DNA from: Deltaproteobacteria bacterium TL4
GTDB taxonomy: Bacteria; SAR324; NAC60-12
Assembly: GCA_051382335.1 (NCBI GenBank)
Contig: JBBCAX010000034.1
Coordinates: 1 to 64,000 of the forward strand
Reading direction: 5' to 3'
DNA: 64,000 nucleotides
The notes under the pieces: model-generated
Databases searched by the model: none
Told to the model about the DNA's origin: nothing
Seen by the model: only the letters and a program-made list of their open reading frames with translations
Position numbers and translations under genes: made by a program
In this document: positions 48,387 through 64,000 of the stretch, one piece after another
Position numbering within the stretch: position 1 is the first letter of the stretch
Layout: every line of letters starts with the position of its first letter

Positions 48387-48599
48387 TTTGCTTCTGCCTC
48401 TTGAATATTCTTTGATGAAAAATGAAAAAACACCGCTCATCACAATCGATGTTTCATTCATGATTAAATCTTTCCTTAATTATACTTCGGATATGGATTA
48501 TACTCCAAAGTAAATTACGCATACATATAGTACGCATACGAAGTAAATGCAAGAAAAAAAAAGCATAATCTTGTCTTAACCAATGGTGCTATAGTATTC

Positions 48600-48893
48600 T
48601 ATAGGTTGTCATTTAAATAAATTCATTTTAATCAGGTTACGGTAGCCCTGGGTTTCGTCCCAGGGGCTGCTATAGGTTGTCATTTAAATAAATTCATTTT
48701 AATCAGGTTACGGTAGCCCTGGGTTTCGTCCCAGGGGCTGCTAGTTCCTTGTTCCTCGGGACGAAACCCGAGGCTACCATCCTCATTTATTGTGCAATTA
48801 TTTAAGTGAACGTCTATAGTTCCTTGTTCCTCGGGACGAAACCCGAGGCTACCATCCTCATTTATTGTGCAATTATTTAAGTGAACGTCTATA
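48600..48893. mobile_element. 144-bp TA-duplicating MITE nested in an identical copy of itself
   Basis: A-A-B-B pattern (71-bp and 75-bp units). The inner copy (48673-48816) is flanked by TA at 48671-72 and 48817-18 within the outer copy's central CTAG; the outer copy is flanked by TA at 48600-01 and 48892-93. Confidence 0.75.
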
Positions 48894-49206: not shown

Positions 49207-49995
49207 TCAGAAGGTTTTGGGCGCAAAGTTGGCGGGAGTTTCGAGGGAAAACACTTCATCATGGATGGAGGCCAGATACAGCCCCGATTGCAGAACGTCC
49301 TCTCTCACGGAAGACTCAGTATCCACATAAACGACCATTCCCCGGATTGTTTTGTCGGAAAACTCCGGAAAAAACATCCGGAAGTTTTTCAGGATCTCCA
49401 GCGTTTGGTCCAGATCCCGTTGTTCCAGACGACTTTTGACTTCAATCACATACAACTCATTCACCGTGCCATTCGCATAAGCCACCGCATCCACTTCCAT
49501 GTTCTTTCCCTCTTTTCTTTTGCGGAGACGGGTCAGAAAGGTATCCATCCCAAAGCGCTCTGTCATGATTTTCGAGATGGAGGGAAACGCCATCCCTTCG
49601 GTGAAGGTGCCAAACTTGTTATTCAAGCCTCCGATATTTTTTGACAATTCTTTGACGATACGGTCGGTTTTCTCAAATTTTTCTTTGAGTTGCTGGTCGG
49701 TTTCCTTGAGCTGTCGGTCGGTTTCCGCTGTTTTTTCCTTCATCTCACGGCTGGTTTCTTTGAGCTGTCGATCGGTTTCAGTAAATTTTTCCTTGAGTTG
49801 CCGGTCGGTTTCCGCTGTTTTTTCCTTCATCTCACGGCTGGTTTCCTTGAGTTGTTGGTCGGTTTCCTTGAGTTGTCGGTCGGTTTCCGCTGTTTTTTCC
49901 TTCATCTCACGGCTGGTTTCCTTGAGTTGACGGTCGGTTTCTTTTTGGGCGATTGCCAAGCTGGCAACCAGTTCTTTGAGTTCTTGATCGGTCAT
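49207..49995 (-). CDS. Coiled-coil repeat protein with C-terminal PD-(D/E)xK-like domain (DUF3782-like)
   Basis: Tandem ETDRQLK and ETSREMKEKTA repeats, then EVDAVAYANG...VIEVKSRL. Confidence 0.75.
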   Translation of the reverse strand: MTDQELKELVASLAIAQKETDRQLKETSREMKEKTAETDRQLKETDQQLKETSREMKEKTAETDRQLKEKFTETDRQLKETSREMKEKTAETDRQLKETDQQLKEKFEKTDRIVKELSKNIGGLNNKFGTFTEGMAFPSISKIMTERFGMDTFLTRLRKRKEGKNMEVDAVAYANGTVNELYVIEVKSRLEQRDLDQTLEILKNFRMFFPEFSDKTIRGMVVYVDTESSVREDVLQSGLYLASIHDEVFSLETPANFAPKTF

Positions 49996-50483: not shown

Positions 50484-50804
50484 TCACAAGCCTCCTCGGA
50501 TACAGCGAACATAGTTGTTATAGGACTTATCGTAGTAGCTCACGTAGCCATCGCTGAAGCCCACGCTCCACGCGTAGCTCGTGTCACCGGCGTAAGTAGT
50601 AGACGACCAATAGCCCGAGGAATTGGTATTAGGAAAATAGGTCGAATTAATAGCAGGACTATAGACAGAATAATCAACAATGGATTGCAGTTCGTTTTTA
50701 CTGGGGAGCCTCCAATCGCTTTTACCACCTAAACTCAAGCCTTCACAATAAGTCAAGGCGGCTTCCCAATTACGAGCGGTGTTATCATCTTCTTTTTGCC
50801 ATAA
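50484..50804 (-). pseudogene. 5'-truncated DUF1566 domain carrying DGR variable region VR-C, in frame behind the stop of the large lipoprotein gene
   Basis: CGA TGA TTA TGG CAA AAA... gives LWQKEDDNTARNWEAALTYCEG...YWSSTT...YVRCIRGGL*. Highly similar to the 3' part and downstream flank of 57480-57914. Confidence 0.75.
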
Positions 50805-53800
50805 TCATCGAACACACCGAACATACATGCTTATATTATTCTCCGATTTTACTTCTCCATTTTGAAAATTAACAAACCATACTATTTCGACTGTATTTTT
50901 ACTAATAGGATCGTAGTCATAATAATTAGTTTTGGACCAATAGTATGAAGATTTTGTATTAGGAAAAAATGAAGTATTGATTGCTGGATTGTAGTTTAAG
51001 TCATCCGTGATAGACTCCAACTCTTTGATGTTTGGAAGACGCCAATCAGTTTTTCCACCCTGACTCAAATTTTCGCAATAGCTCAACGCATTTCCACGAT
51101 TCTTTAATGTATTGTCATCTTCTTTTTGCCACATCAGTTCAGAAAAATTGTCAGTAATAGTTCCATCACCATTATCTAAAAATGAGGAATCCGTATTTGA
51201 GTAACCGCGAACACACCTCACACCATGTTTAAATCCCCATGACCGACTACCGACGGAACCATCTCTGAAAGAAACATCCCAAGCCAAATCCTGATTATTC
51301 GCATAACTTGTATTTGACCAATAATTACCGGTATCTAAAAAGTTGAAATAAGATTCATCGTATCTTAATTCTTTGTTATAAATAATAATTCGAATCAGTT
51401 CCTTTTTGGAGGGCACTCGCCAATCTGAGTAGAACGATAATTCGAGGTTTTCACAATAAGTTACAGCATCCGACATTGTTGGTGTATTTGTAGCATTTGT
51501 TTTTTGCCACACCAGTCCTGTGACATTATCAGTAACGGTTCCATCTTTATTGTCTGTATAAGACATTCTATTCTCTGAAGCATCTGAGAGCTCTTGTTCT
51601 GCTTTCGGAATATGTCCTGTAAAATCGTGAATTGCTTCACTAACCCAAGGACCTTCGCCATTGTTGTTTTTTGTAAAAACAAGTAAGTGGGTTGATCCAG
51701 AAGGAATGGACGTGTTCGTATCAAAATCAAAACTTAGGTTACTTCCAGAAGCGGCAAGAGTTGTGATCGGAGTGCTGTTTACTTTTGTAGTCGCACTTGA
51801 TCCCCAATAAAGTACATAATGTGTAATATCGCTCTCATATCTGGCTTTTGTAATTGTTACGCTTCCGCCTAACTCTCCAGCATCGGTATCTGTATCAACA
51901 AATACCACGCTGGTGGCATTATGAGATGGAACACCAACATCAACAACAACACCATTATGTCCTCCTCTAACACACTTGACATGATTCGTGTCGGTCTTCT
52001 CTGAACGCTCCACAAAACCATAGTAAAAGTCCACAAACCAAGATTGAGTCATTCCAGCGGTAAATATGAATGTTGTAGATGACCAGTATTTTGATGAATA
52101 AGTGTTAGGAAAATAAGTAGATTCGATTGCAGGATTAAATTCGGAGTCATTAGTTATGGACTCCAATTCTTTAATGTTTGGAAGACGCCAATCCGTTTTC
52201 CCACCCAGACTTAAGTTTTCGCAATAACTTAAAGATTCCCCCCATGATATTTTTGTATAGTAATCGTTTTCTTTCTGCCACATCAACCCTGAAAGGTTAT
52301 CTGTAACAGTACCATCACTATTATCGGTAAACAACGTAAACTCACTTACTCCATTGCGAACACACCGAACATAGTTATTCAGCGACATATGTGAGCTATA
52401 TACAACTCCGGAACCAAAATCAATAACCCAGGCTGTATTGCTAAATGCAATATAGTTAGAAGCTGTCCAATAATAATCAGAAGACTTCGTTTTACTGAAA
52501 TAGGCCTCATTGATGCTGGAATTATAAGTCCTGTAATTCACAATACGCATCAACGTTTTTTTACTTGGCAGTTGCCAATCAGAAAAGGATGCCAAGTTCA
52601 GGCTATTACAATAATCTTGAGCTTCTGACCATGTTCTTTTAGTGTTATCATCTTCCTTTTGCCATATTAATCCTGTGATATTATCGGTAATAGTTCCATC
52701 ATCATTATCAGTATATGAAGGTTCATTGAGTAAGTAATCGTGGTCTTCACCCAAAGTTGAGGTATAGGAAATGGTTTGTCCTGTATCAGGAATATAATAT
52801 CCATGACGACCATTATCAAAAATGATCACATTAACACCTCTTGCCATTTCGCCCCTAGTGTTTTTGGTAAAAACGAGTAAATGGGTTGATCCAGATGGAA
52901 TTGATGTATTATCAAAATCAAAAGTCTGGTTATTTCCTGTAGCGGATAAAGTGGAAATTGGGATACTATTTGCTTTTGTTGTCGTATCTGATCCCCAATA
53001 AAGTACATAATGAGTAATATTGCTTTCGTCACTGGCTTTTTTAATTGTTACGCGTCCTCCTAATTCTCCAACATCAGTATCTGTATCTAAAAAAGCTACA
53101 CTATTTGCAGTATGAACAGGAAAACTAACATTGCTTTCACCACTACCACGGACACAACGGACATAACATTCATTATTGCTTTTCCAATGGTCATGAACCT
53201 CTCCGTTGCTGAAATTCACATGCCATGAGTATAGGCGGATGTTGTTGGCTCTGGTAGTGGAAGAGCAATACTTATCTGATTTTGTATTTATGAAATATGT
53301 GGTATTTATCACTGGATTGTATTTTGAGTCATCCGTGATTGACTCCAACTCTTTAATGTTTGGAAGACGCCAATCCGTTTCTCCTCCCAGACTCAAATTT
53401 TCACAATAACTCAGCGAGCTTTCCCCATTTTTTTTTGTGTTGTCATCTTCTTTTTGCCACATCAATTCTGAAAAATTATCTGTAATGGTACCATCACCAT
53501 TATCATTATAAGAAAAAGTTAAATTTGAGGGTTTACGAACACATTTTATATACATCTCGGAAGTCTTACTGCCTGAAAATACATATCCATAACCTAATGA
53601 AACAGCAAAAACATTATTTGAATCGTTAGAATCAACGGTTGAAGACCAAACAGCGGAGGATACGGAAGTGGGAAAAAAGATTGTATCAATGGCAGGCTCG
53701 TACATTCCATAATTTATTATACGCATGAGTTCTTTCTTAGTTGGAAGACGCCAATCTGAATAAGACGCCAAGGTTAAATTGGCACAATAGCTTTCCGAAG

Positions 53801-56291
53801 CGTATGACCAAGGTTCTCTAAAGCTATTTTCACCTTGTTGCCACATTAATCCTGTTATCTTATCTGTGATAGTTCCGTCACTATTATCTATGTAAGAAAG
53901 TTCGTTATATAAATAATCATGATCTTCTCCAAACGTTTGTGTATAACCGATCGTTTGTCCAGTATCAGGAATATGATAACCGTAAATACCAACATCAACA
54001 ATAGGAGCGTTTGCACATATCCTATTTTCACCTTCATCATTTTCGGTGAAAACTAACAGGTGGGTTACTCCTGAGGGAATCGGTGTATTAGCATCAAAAC
54101 TGTATGATAAATTACCTCCTGTTTTTGCAATGGAGCTAATTGCGGTAGAACTTTGTTTCGTGGTACTATTAATCCCCCAATAGAGAACGTAGTGGGTTAT
54201 ATCACTTTCATCACTGGCTTTGAAAATTCTTACTTCTCCACTCAGTCTCCGAACATTAATATCGGTGTCGGTAAAGGTTACACTGAGGTCTGTGCAGGGT
54301 GAAACGGCTTCAATGATAACCACGTTGACCCCAGAGCTCATCTCTCCATCGGCATTTTTTGTAAATACCAAAAGGTGAGTCGCTTCTGATGGTATTGTTG
54401 TATTATTTGGAAAGGTATACGTTAAATTGCTTCCGGTTTTTTCTATAGTAGTAATTGGAGTAAGGCTTTGCTTGGAGGAACTACTCGATCCCCAGTAAAG
54501 AACGTAATGTGTAACATCGTTTTCGTCACTGGCCTTAGTCATTGTGACATCACCAGCTAATTGGCTGCCATCTAAATCAGTATCAGTAAAAGCCACACTA
54601 GAGGCGGCACTTGTGGGAACTCCCAAGTCAGTAATAGCCACGTTGATCCCCGTGCCCATTTCGCCATCAGTATTTTTTGTAAACACCAGTAAATGGGTTG
54701 CTCCTGAGGGAATGGAGGTATCCAAGCTAAATGGGTGAGTCACATTACTTCCTGTTACAGCCAGGGAGGTGATTTCGGATGTACTTTGTTTTGCTGTAGA
54801 ACTCGTCCCCCAGTAAAGAACGTAATGTGTAACATCGCTTTCGTCACTGGCTTTGATAATCGTTATATCGCCAGCTAACTGGCCGCCATCGAGATCAGTA
54901 TCATTGAAGATCACACTTACTGCGGCGTTTATTGGAACCCCTAAGTCAGTAATAGCCACGTTGATCCCAGTGCCCATTTCTCCATCGGCATTTTTTGTAA
55001 ATACCAAAAGATGAGTCGCTTCTGATGGTATTGTTGTATTATTTGGAAAGGTATACGTTAAATTGCTTCCGGTTTTTTCTATAGTAGTAATTGGAGTAAG
55101 GCTTTGCTTGGAGGAACTACTCGATCCCCAGTAAAGAACGTAATGTGTAACATCGTTTTCGTCACTGGCTTTAGTGACTGCTACATTTCCAGCCAACTTT
55201 CCACCCTCAAAGTCTGTATCTGTGAAGGACATACTGATCGCACTATGAGTTGGTACTCCTAAATCAGTAATAGCCACATTCACTCCTATCCCCATCTCTC
55301 CATTTGCGTTTTTAGTAAATACCAAAAGGTGAGTCGCTTCTGATGGTATTGTTGTATTATCTGGGAAGGTATGCGTTAAATTGCTTCCGGTTTTAACGAT
55401 AGTAGAAATTGGTTTAGCACCTTGCTTCTTGTTAGAACTCGTCCCCCAGTAAAGAACGTAATGTGTAACATCGCTTTCGTCACTGGCTTTAGTAATTGAC
55501 AGAAATCCTCCAAGTTCACCTCCATCTGGATCAAGATCAGTATAAGAAACGCTAACTGCGGCATTTTGAGGGGGGGGATGATTATCTGAATTCTGTTCTA
55601 TTTCAGTAATGCTGTTATTAAGGTGAGCGGTTGCTTCTTCACTGGAAACAAGGGTTTGTTTTCCACCTGTCAACGCTGTTTCTTTTGAGACAGCTATAAC
55701 CACTGACTGTACCGTATTATCCGCTTCAAAAATTTCAGGAGGTACGTTAAAGTTTATCGTTTCCGCAACGTTCTCAATGGCGATAACAACAGCGGGAGTG
55801 ATCGTAATCCCATTTGTAGGATCGCCATCATCATCCAGAGTTTGTAGAAACCGCGCAATATTGGTGACGGCCTGATTGGATGCGTCGGTTGCGTTTTCTA
55901 CTAGGTCTACAGGTGTAACAGTAGATTTTGCTTCCCCTTCACCAAGTACAATGCCTCCTACCGAAAATTGGACTCTGTTTCCTTCCTCGTAATAAAAGGT
56001 ACCATATTCATCAGTATTTCCTCTTTGTCCTCCTGAGACATAGACCACTCCATCCACCGGACTGTCTAAAAAGATGCCTTTCAGGATTTCAAGAGAGGCC
56101 TCTTGTTGTGATGAAGTGTCCGAGTCCTCAGGGTGAGTCGCTTCTGAATTATCTGTTTCTTTGCTTTCTTCTATATTAGAAGTCCCTTTTTTTTCAGAAT
56201 CATCTTTTCCTGATGTGTTATCACAACCATGAGTAAAGATCATACTTCCACAGAAAGTGAAAATTATAATTAGTATATTTATGTTTTTCAT
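50805..56291 (-). CDS. Large lipoprotein/adhesin with 7 copies of a ~100-aa repeat and 6 DUF1566 (Lcl C-terminal, CLec) domains
   Basis: Lipobox-like IFTHGC; repeats TDTD..G.L.G...THYVLYWG...THLLVFT.N; DUF1566 motifs DN.DGT.TD...LMWQ, WRLP..KEL, YWS, VRCVR arranged in three tandem pairs. Confidence 0.88.
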   Translation of the reverse strand: MKNINILIIIFTFCGSMIFTHGCDNTSGKDDSEKKGTSNIEESKETDNSEATHPEDSDTSSQQEASLEILKGIFLDSPVDGVVYVSGGQRGNTDEYGTFYYEEGNRVQFSVGGIVLGEGEAKSTVTPVDLVENATDASNQAVTNIARFLQTLDDDGDPTNGITITPAVVIAIENVAETINFNVPPEIFEADNTVQSVVIAVSKETALTGGKQTLVSSEEATAHLNNSITEIEQNSDNHPPPQNAAVSVSYTDLDPDGGELGGFLSITKASDESDVTHYVLYWGTSSNKKQGAKPISTIVKTGSNLTHTFPDNTTIPSEATHLLVFTKNANGEMGIGVNVAITDLGVPTHSAISMSFTDTDFEGGKLAGNVAVTKASDENDVTHYVLYWGSSSSSKQSLTPITTIEKTGSNLTYTFPNNTTIPSEATHLLVFTKNADGEMGTGINVAITDLGVPINAAVSVIFNDTDLDGGQLAGDITIIKASDESDVTHYVLYWGTSSTAKQSTSEITSLAVTGSNVTHPFSLDTSIPSGATHLLVFTKNTDGEMGTGINVAITDLGVPTSAASSVAFTDTDLDGSQLAGDVTMTKASDENDVTHYVLYWGSSSSSKQSLTPITTIEKTGSNLTYTFPNNTTIPSEATHLLVFTKNADGEMSSGVNVVIIEAVSPCTDLSVTFTDTDINVRRLSGEVRIFKASDESDITHYVLYWGINSTTKQSSTAISSIAKTGGNLSYSFDANTPIPSGVTHLLVFTENDEGENRICANAPIVDVGIYGYHIPDTGQTIGYTQTFGEDHDYLYNELSYIDNSDGTITDKITGLMWQQGENSFREPWSYASESYCANLTLASYSDWRLPTKKELMRIINYGMYEPAIDTIFFPTSVSSAVWSSTVDSNDSNNVFAVSLGYGYVFSGSKTSEMYIKCVRKPSNLTFSYNDNGDGTITDNFSELMWQKEDDNTKKNGESSLSYCENLSLGGETDWRLPNIKELESITDDSKYNPVINTTYFINTKSDKYCSSTTRANNIRLYSWHVNFSNGEVHDHWKSNNECYVRCVRGSGESNVSFPVHTANSVAFLDTDTDVGELGGRVTIKKASDESNITHYVLYWGSDTTTKANSIPISTLSATGNNQTFDFDNTSIPSGSTHLLVFTKNTRGEMARGVNVIIFDNGRHGYYIPDTGQTISYTSTLGEDHDYLLNEPSYTDNDDGTITDNITGLIWQKEDDNTKRTWSEAQDYCNSLNLASFSDWQLPSKKTLMRIVNYRTYNSSINEAYFSKTKSSDYYWTASNYIAFSNTAWVIDFGSGVVYSSHMSLNNYVRCVRNGVSEFTLFTDNSDGTVTDNLSGLMWQKENDYYTKISWGESLSYCENLSLGGKTDWRLPNIKELESITNDSEFNPAIESTYFPNTYSSKYWSSTTFIFTAGMTQSWFVDFYYGFVERSEKTDTNHVKCVRGGHNGVVVDVGVPSHNATSVVFVDTDTDAGELGGSVTITKARYESDITHYVLYWGSSATTKVNSTPITTLAASGSNLSFDFDTNTSIPSGSTHLLVFTKNNNGEGPWVSEAIHDFTGHIPKAEQELSDASENRMSYTDNKDGTVTDNVTGLVWQKTNATNTPTMSDAVTYCENLELSFYSDWRVPSKKELIRIIIYNKELRYDESYFNFLDTGNYWSNTSYANNQDLAWDVSFRDGSVGSRSWGFKHGVRCVRGYSNTDSSFLDNGDGTITDNFSELMWQKEDDNTLKNRGNALSYCENLSQGGKTDWRLPNIKELESITDDLNYNPAINTSFFPNTKSSYYWSKTNYYDYDPISKNTVEIVWFVNFQNGEVKSENNISMYVRCVR

Positions 56292-56467
56292 ATTTCTACT
56301 TTGATTTGGCTTATTATTTTCAATAAAATCCCCCACCGCATACGGTCTCGCTAACGCAAAATATTCGGTATGCGAAAACGGGGTGTTTACGGACTAAACT
56401 CCCAAGAGAGTGGGGTACTAACCCAATGCTGTGCAATAAAAATTAATTCTTTTTTTATTAAATAAGT

Positions 56468-57337: not shown

Positions 57338-57479
57338 TTGAAGTACCTGTGTTGTTTATAAATTGTGAAAACTTTAAGGCAAAACCCTTTGTCTGAATTT
57401 AAAAAAAATTCGACAAGGGGCAAGCCCCTGTACCCCGCTTTTTTAAATAATCAAATTCCCAAATAATCAAATAATCAAC

Positions 57480-57653
57480 TCACAAGCCTCCTCGGACGCA
57501 ACGGACATAGTTCGTATTAGTCTTATAGTAGCCGTCCACGTAACCATTGTAGAAGTACACGTACCACGCATAGCTCGTATAGCTAGCGCTGGTAGTGGAC
57601 GACCAATAGTTCGACGACTTGGTATTAGGAAAATAGGTTGAATTAATGGCAGG
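57480..57653 (-). repeat. DGR variable region VR-B and conserved flank
   Basis: 174-nt block identical to 60039-60212 except 16 substitutions, all at positions 1-2 of NNC/NNT codons. Confidence 0.88.
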
Positions 57654-57914
57654 ACTATAGACAGAATAATCAACAATGGATTGCAGTTCGTTTTTACTGG
57701 GGAGCCGCCAATCGGTTCTGCCACCTAAAGTCAAGCCTTCACAATAAGTCAAGGCGGTTTCCCAATTGCGAGCGGTGTTATCATCTGCTTTTTGCCATAT
57801 CAATCCTGATTCATTATCGGTTACTGTTCCATCTGCATTGTCTGTAAAAGAAGCGGCATAAACCACGTTGACCAAAAATAAAAATAGCCCCATCCAACAG
57901 ATATATTTTTTCAT
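57480..57914 (-). CDS. Secreted single-domain DUF1566 protein, DGR target (VR-B)
   Basis: AAGGAG RBS, signal peptide ending VYA, FTDNADGTVTD, WRLP, YWSSTT...YVRCVRGGL. Confidence 0.9.
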   Translation of the reverse strand: MKKYICWMGLFLFLVNVVYAASFTDNADGTVTDNESGLIWQKADDNTARNWETALTYCEGLTLGGRTDWRLPSKNELQSIVDYSVYSPAINSTYFPNTKSSNYWSSTTSASYTSYAWYVYFYNGYVDGYYKTNTNYVRCVRGGL

Positions 57915-57940: not shown

Positions 57941-59356
57941 TTAATTCAAGTGTTCTTGTTTATTGGCAGGAAACAACACTTTTTCGGTGATGACTCGTTT
58001 CTTTAAACCTGAACTGTAATACCCCTCTTCATCAACGACAATGTACGAGTAGCCATGCGCTAATATTCGCTTTTTGAAATGTTTTAACAATCTTTTGGGA
58101 AATCCGCATTGTCCTCGAAATCCTCGCTTTCCTTCTTCCATTTTCAGATTTAATAATTTCGAAGCCTGTATCGCCCTTTCGTCATATAATTCATAGTATT
58201 GACCCACCTGAAAAAAAATGAAAAATGTTTTGTAACGACCAGAAAACCAATAATATTGGTTTTTAAATTTTTTTGGAATATAAGGGGGTTCATAGAGAGG
58301 ACGTAACTGATTTTGTTTATCCAATAAAAACAGATGGTTCAACCAAGGATTTTTTCCCCAAATAGCTTGGGTCAATTGAGAGGCATCAGCGTGTTTAAAG
58401 TGTCCAATGTAAGAAGCCAGTGTTTGTCGAACAGCGTTTCTGTTTTCCAAAGACAAATCAATCATAACAGACTGTAACACTTCTGAGACCTCATCGGAGG
58501 GGGGTGTAGCCGAAACACAACTAATAAATGTTTTACTTTGTTTTATTGACGGCCTATCCCCCTGTCTTTTTATTTTGTTTTGAAAAACAATTTGTTTTTC
58601 AAGAGAGATGAGTTTCAGCTTCATGTTACTCACAACCCTGTTCCGAACAAGGGTATAACCGGGTCTGACAATATATCCCAAAAAATCAGACCCTTCACTC
58701 ACTCGTTTTAGGATCACTCCAGGTTTCAAGGTCAAAGTCAGTTTTTGGTTGAGAAACACTTCGATAGACTCTTTCATGTGGAACAAGCGTTCTTTTGAGG
58801 GGTCTAGTAGAATAAAATCGTCCATATACCTCACGTAAAACTGGCATTTTAGGCGGTGTTTTACGTATTGATCCAGCTCATTGAGATAGATATTAGCAAA
58901 AAACTGAGAAGTTAAGTTACCAATGGGCAAGCCTTTCCCTGGTAAAGTATGAAAGAGCGACTTATGAGGTGGAACCCTATCTAACAAGTCAGGGACACCT
59001 CGATAAGTGTAGTTTTCTATACAGGGATGTTGAAGAATTATCTTTGTCATTTGTAACAACGATTCCTCTTTTAAATGCTTTTGAATGATATCAAGCAGGA
59101 TTTCCCGATCAATACTCATAAAAAAACTCCGTATATCCAACTGTAGAAACCATGCGGTCACTTTCCCGCTTTTTGTGACACGAAGCATAAAGGAACGTAA
59201 CCGCTCAACCGCAGCATGAGTTCCCTTGTTTTTTCTACAGGCGTAAGAATCATCAATAAACTTTGGTTCCCAAATTTGCTCCAAATGAGGAACCAGCAAA
59301 TGATGAATAACTCTGTCTCTAAAGTCCGCTGCGAAAACTTCTCTGAGTTTTGGTTT
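57941..59356 (-). pseudogene. DGR reverse transcriptase, N-terminally truncated, with C-terminal MutS domain I fusion
   Basis: KPKLREVFAADFRDRVIHH, SYACRKNKGTHAA, LDIRSFFMSID, GLPIGNLTSQFFANIYL, YVRYMDD, DFLGY. C-terminus QYYWF...FFQVGQYYELYDERA...GFP...GYSYIVVDE is MutS-I-like. The frame is closed by TGA just upstream of KPKLR. Confidence 0.88.
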
Positions 59357-59571
59357 TCCTCACTGCAATCCCGTAATTGGGTCAATGCCTGGTATTTTTC
59401 AAATTGAGAGTTTGCTTGAATGACCAACGTCACCAATTTTCGGGACAAATTCCGAAGATCCTGCCCCAAGGCGTATTTATGGGAGCGAGGAAAATCTTTT
59501 ACAATTTGTTCAGTCAAAACCGCTAACTCCATTGTTTTTTTATAAAGGGGTAAGTTTTCGTAATAAGCCAT
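59357..59571 (-). pseudogene. avd: Avd-like (four-helix-bundle) accessory protein, 3'-truncated
   Basis: YENLPLYKK...FPRSHKYALGQDLR...VIQANS. After ~72 codons it runs out of frame into RT coding sequence. Confidence 0.78.
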
Positions 59572-59891
59572 TATGTGGAAGCCTTAAGTCGAATGACCTC
59601 AGAAACAATTCGGGTCTTGTTTTCGTCCTGAAATGCAATCGCCACAGACTGTCCAGCTCGTAATAGTTTGCCTATATACGCATCCAGTCCTGATTTGGGA
59701 AAGCCTCCTGTCACATAGGGTTTTTCAGGGGTTCCCCCCATTTTTAATTTCAGACCTGTCAGCTGTGATAGCGTTTTAGCGTCTTCATTCATCAACTGCA
59801 TGAAAGCACCTACCTGCATCAGCAGGATGGTATCAGGTTCTTTTGTTTTAAGGTCTTCATATTGTAAAACTAATTTCTCTGAGTTCATCAT
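59571..59891 (-). CDS. Stand-alone MutS domain I-like protein
   Basis: QYEDLKTKEPDTILLMQVGAFMQLMNEDAKTLSQLTGLKL...GGFPKSGLDAYIGKLLRAGQSVAI follows the MutS_I consensus; TAATG overlap with avd. Confidence 0.82.
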   Translation of the reverse strand: MMNSEKLVLQYEDLKTKEPDTILLMQVGAFMQLMNEDAKTLSQLTGLKLKMGGTPEKPYVTGGFPKSGLDAYIGKLLRAGQSVAIAFQDENKTRIVSEVIRLKAST

Positions 59892-60038
59892 AAGTCTTTC
59901 TCTTTCAAATTGTATTGATTCCTTTAATTTATGGGAATTCCCCCATTTTTCAGAGCTATCGTCAAAATGTAAAAAAAAATTTTCAGGCTCCGCCATTTTA
60001 AAAAAATAATCAAATTTCCAAATAACCAAATAACCGAC

Positions 60039-60212
60039 TCACAAGCCTCCTCGGACGCAACGGACATAGTACGTATTAGTCTTATCGTAGCCGTACACGT
60101 GACCATAGTAGAAGTTCACGCTCCACGCAGAGCTCGTACCGTAAGCGTAGGTAGTGGACGACCAATAGTACGACGACTTGGTATTAGGAAAATAGGTTGA
60201 ATTAATGGCAGG
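60039..60212 (-). repeat. DGR variable region VR-A and conserved flank
   Basis: Aligns without gaps to VR-B; a GGC-GGA-GCC mini-hairpin lies downstream at 59986-59994. Confidence 0.88.
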
Positions 60213-63200
60213 GTTCACAAGCGCGTTATTGACGATCAACATTAGTTCTTTTACTGTAGGGAGTCGCCAGTCTGAATGAGAACCCAGTGTCAATGCACTA
60301 CAATAACTCCCAGCATTTGACCATGTACGTGTGCTATTATCGTCTTCCTTTTGCCACATTAAACCAGTTACGTTATCCGTAATAGTTCCGTTCCCATTGT
60401 AGGTATAGGAGGGTGGATTAATACTATAATCGTGATCTTCACCAAAGGTCGTAGTATAGGAAGTCGTTTGTCCTGTGTCAGGAATACAACTTGGGCAGAT
60501 ATCGGCGATTTTCATACTCACTCCTGTTGTCATTTCAACAGTGTTATTTTGTGTAAAGACCAGTAAGTGGGTGGCTCCGGTAGGCAGTGAAGTATTTGCT
60601 GAAAAGGTATGCGTTACATTGGAACCGGTTGCCGCCAACGTAGCAATAGCGGTTTGCCCACTCAGTTTGGTGCTGGCACCTGAACCCCAGTAGAGGGCGT
60701 AGTGAGTCACAAAAGTTTCATCAGTAGCTTTGGTGATGGTAACAGCACCAGCTAATTCATTTTTGTTTCCGTCCGTATCCGTGAATGAGACACTAACAGC
60801 AGTAAATGGTTGATCACCAATAGTAACATTGACCCCAGTACTCATTTCCGCTCCGGAATTTTGTGTAAAGACCAGTAAGTGGGTGGCTCCTGTCGGCAGT
60901 GAGGTGTTTTCTGAAATGGTATGCGTGACATTGGAACCGGTTGCCGCTAAAGTAGCAATAGCGGTTTGTCCACTGAGTTTGGTAGTGGCATTTGAGCCCC
61001 AATAGAGAGCATAGTGAGAAATATAGGTTTCATCAGTGGATTTGGTGATAGTAACCGTTCCTGCCAGTTCGTTTTGATTACGGTCAGTATCCGTGAACGC
61101 AACACTGACCGCTGTTTCAGTTGGTACTGGTGGCGCTAGATTTCCAGAGGCGTTATTGTCCGTGATTTCGCCACTGACGCCTTCTGTCATTTCGCCATAA
61201 GTGTTGTAAGTATAGACTAAAAAATGCGTAGCTCTTGGTGGTTTCCAGGTGTTGAGAGGCAGATTATATTTTAATTCGTCATTGGTTTTCGCAACCGTTG
61301 TCAACAGGGAGAGTTTGGTCGTGGCGTCCGTTCCCCAATACACTTTATATCCGGTGATATGGCTTTCATCGCTGGCTTTGATGATCGCGATTTTTCCAGC
61401 GACCTGATTTCCCTCCGCGTCAAAATCCACAAAACTGACACCTCCCGCTTTGAGGGTGGGGGGTTGAGAATCCGCAAGTTTAACACTGACTGGTGTTAAA
61501 TATTCCCCTTCTCCATATAAGGTGTAGACAAGTAGATGTGTTACTCCTTGTGGAATGGCAGTGTTCGGGGGAAGGAGATAAGAAAGATTGGAGCCTGTTT
61601 TAGAAAGTTGGGTAATCAGTGTGGTTTTTGTATTCGCGTCCGTTCCCCAATAAAGGTTGTAAGCAATTAGTTCCGATTCATCCGGGACTTTTGAAATGGT
61701 GAGTGTCCCGCCAATTTCTCCGACTTGAGGATCAGAATCGATCATGGTAATGGTTTGCGGACGTCGAAAAGTCGCTGTAATGGAATCATTTACCGGCCCT
61801 GTCATATTTCCAACCGCGTCTTTAAACCAGGCATAAAGGGTTTTTGTGCCATTACTGTAGGGAAAGGTATAAGCGACATTTTGGGAAAAGGCCTTTGTTG
61901 ATGTCACTGAGATCCATCCACTTGCGTTAAGTGCTGGGGTTTGTGAGTTTTCTGAAAGATAATATCCGGTAACGCCAATATTGTCCTGAGCGGCAAGGGT
62001 TAAGGTGACACTGTCATCAAAGGTAGTCGTTTGTCCATTATTAATCGAAATTGTAGCCGCGGAAGGTGAGCTTGGATCGGTGTTTATTGTGAAACTTCCT
62101 CCGCTGACCGGAGTGCTTTGAACATCATTTCCCGCCAAATCCTTCGCGTTTTGAAGGGTGACAGCAGCCGTTCCGTTTACTGTTCCAACTGTGTGAACGT
62201 ATTGGTAAACCGTGGCACTTACTTTAGTCATTGGTTTTGAAATGGTCTGGGAAGGTTCCTGGATGCGGAGGGAAGGAACAGGACTATCGCTGATTTGCTC
62301 GTTAAAAGTGGCGGTGATGGTGAGGGTTTCTCCGCCTGTTAGAGTCTGGTTGATGGAATAGGTAATTTTTGCGGTAGGGGCGGTGGTGTCGATGGTGATT
62401 GCTTTTGATCCGGTTTTTGACCAAAACCCTTCAATATTTTCCTCGACATAGAGCGTGTGTGTGCCTTCTGTTAAATTGGTTGCTGGTGTAAAGAACGTTT
62501 CTAACGTTTCGGTCGCGTCTTCATTCAAATTACTGTGATCCAATTTGTAGCGGTAAAGTCCCGAACCATTCGTCACAAGAGGAGTCCAACTCCAGGGGGG
62601 TTTAACATTTTTATTAGGTGATATCCCCGCGACAGTGGGCGAAGTATTAAGGGGAAGAGGGTTGCTTACCAGATCTTTGGTAGAAGTTTTGGACAAAGGG
62701 ATTGGTTTTTTATAATCCAGAAAATGAGGCTCAACGTAATACTCAATGGTTTTTTGATCTTGACTATAAAACGCGATATGAGCTCTGCCAAAACGGTCTA
62801 AAGCCAAAGCGCTGTATTTACCAATATCGTTAAACCCAACTCTTGGGACTTCAATTCTCCAGCGATTGCTCAATCCAAGGGCTTCTCCTCGTAAGCGAAT
62901 GGCGTAACGAAGTTCTTTTTTTCCTGGATGATAATAAGAAACACGGGCGGCGTTAAAGCGGTCAACGGCAAAGCCCAAAACATTATCCTGAATACTGCCT
63001 AACGATTCAATGACAGAAGACAACCAGCTTCCATCCTGTTTAATGGTGTGAATAAGGCTTCCCCCTTTCATGTAAACTGCTTGGGGACGACCGTCCTGAT
63101 CAATTCGAAGGTGAAGGCCATAACCCGCCTCTTCAGAAGCATCAACGACTTCAATTTCCCATTTATTAGAGTTGGTTTCAGAAGCTCCATAAAACAAATG

Positions 63201-64000
63201 CTGATTCATTCTAAAGAGGATTCTGGGTTCTCCCTTCGCATTGTAGGTTAAATCGTTATGAGTGCCTTTTTCTCCCACCACAACCGTTGAAATATTCCAT
63301 GTTTCTCTCAAGGCGTCTGAGGACGTCGCATACTTTAAGGTTTTGCTATCTTTGTAATATAAAAGCCCAAGTAACCCTGTGTTTCCTGATGCCATACTGA
63401 TTGACGCCTGATTAAAGGAGGCTGAGAGGGTGACCTCATCAAGCTCTCTTTTTACCCAATGTCCACTTCCTTGCTGAATCCAGCAACTGAGTTTGTTCCC
63501 TTCAATGGCACAAGTACTTGGAAGAACATTTAAGGGGTCTATTTTGATTTTACTGAATTTTCCATAGTCTCCGTTTCCATCCAGGGCTTCACTGTTCCAT
63601 ATTCCTTTGAAAAAAGTATAAATGATTTTTTTGTACTGGATATCATAGGAGCTGATATTGATTTCATCCTGATTAAGAGCCAGAGAGACATCGGTTCCAA
63701 AGTCGCTATCATTAATGGGGTATCGTGACGGGCGGTTTGACCTCAATGGTGGCAGGCGTCGCGTAAATTTCGTCACAACTGACATTTAGCAGCGTATATC
63801 CTTTCTTTACCCCTTTGAATAGGGCGGACTCAGTGTTGGACGATTGTTTGCTGACATAGCGGTCATCGAATTCCCACTTAAGTCCGTCTTTACAATCAAG
63901 AGAGGTTGGGGCGCCTCGTGTATCGGTGGCATACACATTAAAAATACGAGTCCCTTCAACGTCGAGTGATAAGCGTATGGGTGAAATCGCAATGGATTGA
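60039..64000 (-). CDS. Large surface protein with Ig-like domains, 4 copies of the ~100-aa repeat and a C-terminal DUF1566 DGR target (VR-A); frameshift near 63717; 5' end outside the window
   Basis: ORF 60039-63785 plus a different frame open from 63999 to 63712 (QSIAISPIRLSLDVEG...PVTIP) that joins ..INDSDFG if one C is removed from the C4 run. Confidence 0.82.

Follow-up and report, generated by a model that had tools for sequence, protein, structure and literature searches.

Known DGRs with MutS-like modules

MutS-like additions to DGRs have been described in two forms. In the survey of Wu et al. 2018 (PMC5758913), three RTs have a C-terminal MutS_I domain, namely those of Ca. Magnetobacterium bavaricum (FP929063), Desulfobacterium (FR695874) and a bioreactor sequence (AMWB01060384) (Table S1 rows 18, 27 and 28), and 16 DGRs have a free MutS-like gene, or MSL. 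The fusion DGRs resemble the locus considered here in the RT::MutS_I fusion and the CLec2/DUF1566 targets, and rows 27 and 28, with the order TG-AVD-TR-RT-TG and a small second target, resemble the clade to which it belongs. The MSL DGRs, of Architecture D (PMC5758913; Bacteroides Msl, bioRxiv 2024.11.15.621889), are alike in their order TG-MSL-AVD-TR-RT, in a small neutral protein that consists of MutS domain I only, and in DUF1566 targets. Each MutS-like module was already published in 2018, and the two are nowhere listed together in the rows concerned: the fusion DGRs list no MSL, and none of the 16 MSL rows has MutS_I in the RT (PMC5758913).

In Bacteroides ovatus, deletion of host mutS is reported to have raised VR mutagenesis ~5-10 fold; in the same preprint the lowest activities were those of three Msl-bearing DGRs, and two DGRs without Msl were highly active, which its authors credit to transcription (bioRxiv 2024.11.15.621889). 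MutS is described as dispensable for BPP-1 retrohoming (PMC5758913), and in a DGR reconstituted in E. coli loss of mutS was reported to have no effect on an 18-nt insertion reporter, which according to the authors is not a MutS substrate (PMC12875486). A literature search covering few subscription papers yielded nothing on MSL/tail pairing and no tests of binding, activity or function.

Anatomy of the locus

The DNA analysed here, called the window, is a 64,000-nucleotide stretch from Deltaproteobacteria bacterium TL4. On its minus strand the ORF list and Pfam give, in order, a 1248-aa target, a 106-aa MSL, the 5' part of avd, the frame of an RT and a second Lcl_C gene of 144 aa. Both flanking genes carry Lcl_C and are CLec-fold targets with a C-terminal VR; in target 1 the domain occupies residues 1133-1245 (Pfam E 2e-36). 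Unlike the fusion DGRs of Wu et al., the window thus has a free MSL between target and avd, in a cassette that is broken. The parts, and the sister cassette with which they are compared, are as follows.

60039..63785, minus strand: target gene 1, 1248 aa, C-terminal Lcl_C (DUF1566, CLec2-type); ORF and Pfam
60051..60178, minus strand: VR1 core of target 1; comparison with the C135 TR core
60000..60050, minus strand: VR1 3' flank (IMH region), tandem ~8-nt units ending TTTG; sequence, same pattern in relatives
59571..59891, minus strand: free MSL gene, 106 aa, intact; Pfam, structure model, Foldseek, alignment
59796-59804, minus strand: F-M-Q of the free MSL, in Phe-X-Glu register; alignment to MutS
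59359..59571, minus strand: avd, 5' 71 codons only; Pfam bAvd and alignment to C135 Avd
59354..59358, minus strand: deletion junction, ~610 bp gone; alignment to the intact C135 cassette
57941..59356, minus strand: DGR RT, N-terminally truncated, 471 open codons; ORF, Pfam, 55% identity to the 508-aa C135 RT
58817-58828, minus strand: YMDD of the RT; sequence
58025..58267, minus strand: C-terminal MutS domain I of the RT fusion; Pfam MutS_I
58190-58198, minus strand: Y-Y-E of the RT tail; register against MutS
57480..57914, minus strand: target gene 2, 144 aa, one Lcl_C domain; Pfam E 1.7e-40
57492-57619, minus strand: VR2 core of target 2; comparison with the C135 TR
57401..57479, minus strand: VR2 3' flank, tandem TTTG-type units with a GC-rich inverted repeat next; sequence
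57414-57430, minus strand: the GC-rich inverted repeat in the VR2 flank; sequence
50484..50804, minus strand: target 2 duplicate, 5'-truncated, VR misfitting the C135 TR, hairpin with two changes; sequence comparison
G000:C135:17536-23888, strand not given: intact sister cassette with both MutS-I modules (L001); paralogue search

A broken cassette and its intact sister

Key to the interpretation of the locus is a complete paralogue on another contig of the same genome, C135, with the order target-MSL-avd-TR-RT::MutS_I-target (target frame of 1124 codons, Avd of 123 aa, RT::MutS_I of 508 aa, second target small). Aligned to it, the window has lost the 3' half of avd, the spacer, the whole TR and ~72 N-terminal RT codons. 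The avd match, 69% identical to residues 1-71 of C135 Avd and scoring against Pfam bAvd at E 9e-7 (profile positions 5-59 of 107), ends after codon 71, and RT sequence resumes five bases later at K-P-K-L-R-E. The two are joined out of frame at 59354-59358: the avd reading continues beyond the join as far as a stop at 59158, and a stop codon lies just upstream of the RT sequence in the RT frame. The RT keeps its catalytic motifs in the window and is intact on C135. No Lcl_C-type TR was found within the window, and that of C135 is the only one found in the host assembly.

Read from its sequence, then, the window cassette is a broken DGR and not an intact one, and since it lacks a TR and the RT N-terminus it is unlikely to function on its own. 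The initial annotation rightly called the span a DGR but missed the break, with its cut in avd and its loss of the TR and of the RT N-terminus. Loci of the clade have often decayed in this way: in 11/35 metagenome loci with both MSL and a downstream tail, the RT core between the two is partly or wholly gone (9 distinct; short contigs favour short relics).

Targets and probable diversification in trans

Over the 128-nt core, both window VRs agree with the C135 TR at every non-A position (0/84 differences) and depart from it only at adenines, at 17/44 A sites in VR1 and 13/44 in VR2. Forty (40) other related cassettes, all those with an avd-RT segment, served as control: placed without gaps, their segments, one of them lacking a recognisable TR, depart from the C135 TR at 19-50 of the 84 non-A positions. 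The RT cores of the window and C135 are just 67% identical. Seven VRs, spread over five contigs (C34 and C135, two each; C53, C172 and C187), fit the C135 TR with no more than one non-A difference each. Because the window VRs match this TR at 84/84 non-A positions and other cassettes do not, the C135 cassette likely drives both window targets in trans, though the lost window TR may have been identical to that of C135. Degenerate DGR loci diversified in trans are described in Thiohalocapsa PB-PSB1 (PMC10907252); the word MutS occurs 0 times in the main text of that paper, unlike the present locus with its MutS-I modules.

A duplicate of target 2 was written differently. Its 180 nt upstream of the VR are 93% identical to target 2 (12 differences), and its VR differs from the C135 TR at 16/84 non-A positions; since the twin copies are alike upstream and unlike in the VR, two different templates wrote them. 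The middle of this truncated copy is abutted by an 1843-aa gene with six Lcl_C domains (50805-56336), a junction suggestive of a further deletion, which may have taken out an entire third cassette. On C103, C326 and C140, Lcl_C gene ends share non-A differences from the C135 TR (21-22/84), which suggests another template, lost or unassembled.

It may be asked whether the organism, or some of its population, has an intact locus that acts in cis with its own TR, the deletion being an assembly error or a minority variant. The RT remnant and the MSL are free of internal stops and frameshifts, the assembly consists of 445 contigs, and mixed intact and broken alleles are reported from Thiohalocapsa (PMC10907252). 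Yet the junction overlap is at most a few bases and lies far from any repeat, the window VRs are already a perfect fit to the C135 TR, and comparable internal deletions recur among the related loci (the 11/35 above). We regard an intact locus as highly improbable and treat the window copy as broken.

After the VRs of the clade come several tandem units of 8-9 nt, each with TTTG at its end, and usually a GC-rich hairpin (window 57430-57479 and 60000-60050; L063-L139); these units and the hairpin are not present after the TR in the clade. The units were considered as a site specific to DGRs with MutS modules, and this was rejected: tail-less DGRs also have them, if fewer, two or more being present in 22/23 tail+MSL VRs versus 42/133 tail-less ones, a contrast confounded by kinship.

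Other repeats and a second class of DGR were also seen. The window contains two exact tandem duplications of 71 and 75 nt with palindromic cores (48599-48891 and 49626-49941) and a 21/33/54-nt coding repeat array. The host genome, G000, has a DGR class with GSNRVNRGG-type templates after the RT, several copies being broken (C153, C133, C208, C387, C58, C156, C207 and C68); by eye, the ORF upstream on C153 looks HRDC-like.

The free MutS-like gene

The free gene scores against Pfam MutS_I at E 1.4e-15, above the Pfam cut-off. Its AlphaFold model (pLDDT 93) has Taq MutS as top Foldseek match (E 1.6e-9, TM 0.82), and E. coli MutS also matches. Its F-M-Q aligns to F36-Y37-E38 of solved MutS, with Gln at the position of Glu38. 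Thus a free MutS-I gene, proposed initially from the letters alone, is borne out by profile and fold, as is its overlap with the avd start, which amounts to one base at 59571 shared by the TAA of MSL and the ATG of avd. Small, neutral and directly before avd, it has the character of an MSL accessory gene, although at 106 aa it is shorter than the range given by Wu et al., which starts at 112, and its subfamily differs from the Architecture D rows in having Q-V-G-x-F-M-Q (PMC5758913).

The likeness to MutS1 of E. coli and Thermus aquaticus (1E3M, 1EWQ; E38Q mutant 1WBD) extends to fold (TM 0.8) and to the Phe36/Glu38 register. Unlike MutS1, both the MSL and the RT fusion end after domain I, with no connector, clamp or ATPase, and neither window module has a true Phe-X-Glu: Gln replaces Glu in the MSL (F-M-Q), and Tyr replaces Phe in the tail (Y-Y-E). 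On C135 the MSL likewise has F-M-Q, and the tail, with F-C-E, has the MutS motif. That F-M-Q and Y-Y-E stand in register with F-Y-E was as first described; that the asymmetry is simply MutS-like was not sustained, for the free copy keeps Phe and has exchanged Glu38 for Gln, a change reported in a review to abolish discrimination between matched and mismatched DNA in MutS (PMC3848065).

The MSL family is tight (46 matches including itself) and neutral (median pI 6.8). The Phe at the wedge position is invariant (47/47), F-M-Q is found in 42/47, and Glu38 has been lost in 46/47 homologues. Within the host phylum the MSL was found in 2/88 genomes, and no relative of it turned up in the viral collection searched. 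The QVG shared by MSL and tail was tried as a sign that the two are duplicates and was rejected, Taq MutS having QVG as well; a quick domain tree (~100 columns, weak, unrooted) did not join them.

The reverse transcriptase and its tail

The window RT has the LPIGNLTSQ and YMDD motifs that the initial annotation had named as DGR-type, and Pfam finds RVT_1 at E 7e-18. In the extension after the thumb, MutS_I is found at residues 364-444 with E 1.7e-11, above the Pfam cut-off, and the tail aligns to residues 17-118 of Taq MutS (E 6e-6) with Y-Y-E in the F-Y-E register; the proposed fusion of MutS domain I to the RT is thereby substantiated. At 58451-58580 the RT thumb region carries an in-frame insertion of ~30 residues that occurs nowhere else in the genome; at this point P0004 and P0005 contain different insertions.

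The fusion is conserved among homologous RTs. A tail-profile search returned 151 clusters at E <=1e-10, RT or thumb sequence being present in 79 of the best 150, and most of the rest look like C-terminal pieces. The tails are basic (median pI ~10); aromatic-X-Glu is present in 19/28 and an aromatic residue at the wedge position in 24/28. Just 6/31 of the tails scanned pass Pfam MutS_I. Most tails belong to a second RT clade in the quick tree, and here the tail is eroded, lacking a middle segment of domain I, and aligns with intact ones. For one eroded tail that was modelled (pLDDT 75), the four best structural matches in VIA-align were all MutS-family domain I (Z 7.2-8.0, rmsd 3.6-4.1, 87-94 residues; next best Z 4.2), a Z near 8 alone being middling by the tool's own note. 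With Foldseek the model gave no match at E <=0.001, the top ranks being all MutS family; a profile built from 18 eroded tails had no match among PDB sequences, and hhalign reached only 75% and 53%. By predicted fold, the eroded tails are still MutS-I.

Pairing of the modules across the clade

A metagenome scan for the MSL family gave 168 matches, of which the best 79 loci were kept. Among these, a tail (defined as at least 160 aa past the RT core) is present in 23/27 distinct complete RTs beside the MSL family, avd follows MSL in 50/66 loci with room, and a same-strand RT follows MSL in 33/44. Co-occurrence of fusion and free gene in many relatives, which the initial annotation proposed to survey, is thus supported, and at the level of sequence the pairing of MSL and tail is a feature of the clade that is new here. 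The RT tree that defines the clades is a quick version (62 rows, with a long-branch warning), open to just one viral locus in four and to 13 selected genome loci; no order of events was drawn from it.

Does pairing in the genome mean pairing in the protein? The initial annotation proposed that MSL and tail form an asymmetric heterodimer, a mini-MutS that would clamp cDNA/VR mismatches, hide them from repair and tether the RT. The 23/27 co-occurrence is in line with it, as are the complementary motifs, aromatic-X-Glu in the tail and Phe-X-Gln in the MSL, and the existence of two independent in-frame MSL::tail chains, L111 (2411-3001) and P0070. But tailed RTs occur without MSL in L003 and L006, as in the three fusion DGRs listed by Wu et al., and a search of the genomes behind L002, L003, L004 and L006, all less than 90% complete, found no such MSL in 4/4; in L067, L101 and L131 the same MSL family stands next to an RT that is distant, lacks a tail and is encoded on the opposite strand. 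Identity between the two RT clades (19 cassettes) is very unequal, falling from 63% in the MSL through 52% in the RT core and 41% in Avd to 23% in the tail, though the high MSL identity may come from recent module swapping and not from constraint. It counts further against a heterodimer that MutS dimerises via its ATPase end and not via domain I. As for the chains, avd, TR and RT core are gone from L111, and P0070 is seen as protein only; because MSL and tail lie equally close but in separate frames in L128, L130, L133, L136 and L137, the in-frame fusions are probably deletion by-products. With five joins out of frame and RT-core loss so frequent, the chains were not accepted as proof of partnership. 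Each module occurs without the other, and charge and rate are unlike in the two; this makes an obligate heterodimer doubtful, and the pair as first proposed is, in our estimate, quite improbable.

Possible roles of the modules

The explanation to which we give about even odds is that the window holds a broken DGR whose targets are rewritten in trans from C135, and that the two modules, side by side, help mismatch-rich cDNA to survive. Its fixed points are the anatomy, the deletion, the identity of the domains, the state of their motifs, the match of TR to VR and the conservation in the clade; the molecular steps are inferred from these. The basic RT tail, usually with aromatic-X-Glu, would grip the mismatched duplex as it leaves the thumb, at first the TR-RNA:cDNA hybrid and then perhaps cDNA:VR. 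The neutral, highly conserved MSL, made with Avd by joint translation across the one-base overlap, would enter the retrohoming complex and occupy the heteroduplex without strict mismatch selectivity. Because it has no ATPase domain it could not start repair, and host MutS/MutL would undo fewer of the events. The two modules would act in parallel and not as a fixed pair, and the unequal charge, motif and identity of tail and MSL were counted in favour of such a division of labour.

Shielding from host repair is plausible by analogy, in that host MutS undoes DGR mutagenesis in Bacteroides and this genome has both a MutS with F-Y-E and a MutL. Against shielding were counted the low activity of the Msl-bearing Bacteroides DGRs and BPP-1 retrohoming without MutS. 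The tail is absent from all complete RTs of viral DGRs examined (0/78), so that DGRs as a rule do not need either module. In full MutS the DNA is held by a clamp domain, which neither module has, and a lone domain I may bind DNA weakly.

The modules might, alternatively, be unrelated to host repair, the tail being an accessory nucleic-acid-binding domain of the RT and the MSL a protein or RNA adaptor in the complex of Avd, RT and TR, or else a regulator. A basic tail placed directly after the thumb would suit a processivity or target-docking domain, and the loss of the middle of domain I from eroded tails points the same way. So do the neutrality of the MSL, its loss of Glu38 in nearly all homologues and its attachment to avd, which it overlaps or abuts in the window and on C135 and which comes next in most metagenome loci with room. 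The Msl-bearing Bacteroides DGRs, moreover, are not reported as more active than others (bioRxiv 2024.11.15.621889). However, the Phe invariant in MSLs and the aromatic residue kept in most tails suggest that base stacking has been retained, and in one system host MutS demonstrably limits retrohoming (bioRxiv 2024.11.15.621889). We think a role apart from repair rather unlikely, and parallel action on mismatch-rich cDNA remains the preferred reading.

A bolder version of the repair connection would make of the modules the DGR's own anti-repair device: the tail, with its aromatic-X-Glu, would read cDNA/VR mismatches, the free Phe-X-Gln domain would dock onto it, and the resulting ATPase-less mini-MutS would cap the heteroduplex and exclude host MutS. 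We think this a long shot.

Significance

RT::MutS_I tails are far commoner than the three reported, and often invisible to Pfam. The clade unites both known MutS-like additions in one cassette, and since natural single-module variants exist, the roles of the modules are separable by simple deletions. The window copy is a relic; the C135 cassette is the one worth study and the test bed for such work. If the anti-repair reading were true, a mini-MutS would set the rate of a genome-wide hypermutation in which a single template serves at least seven targets.
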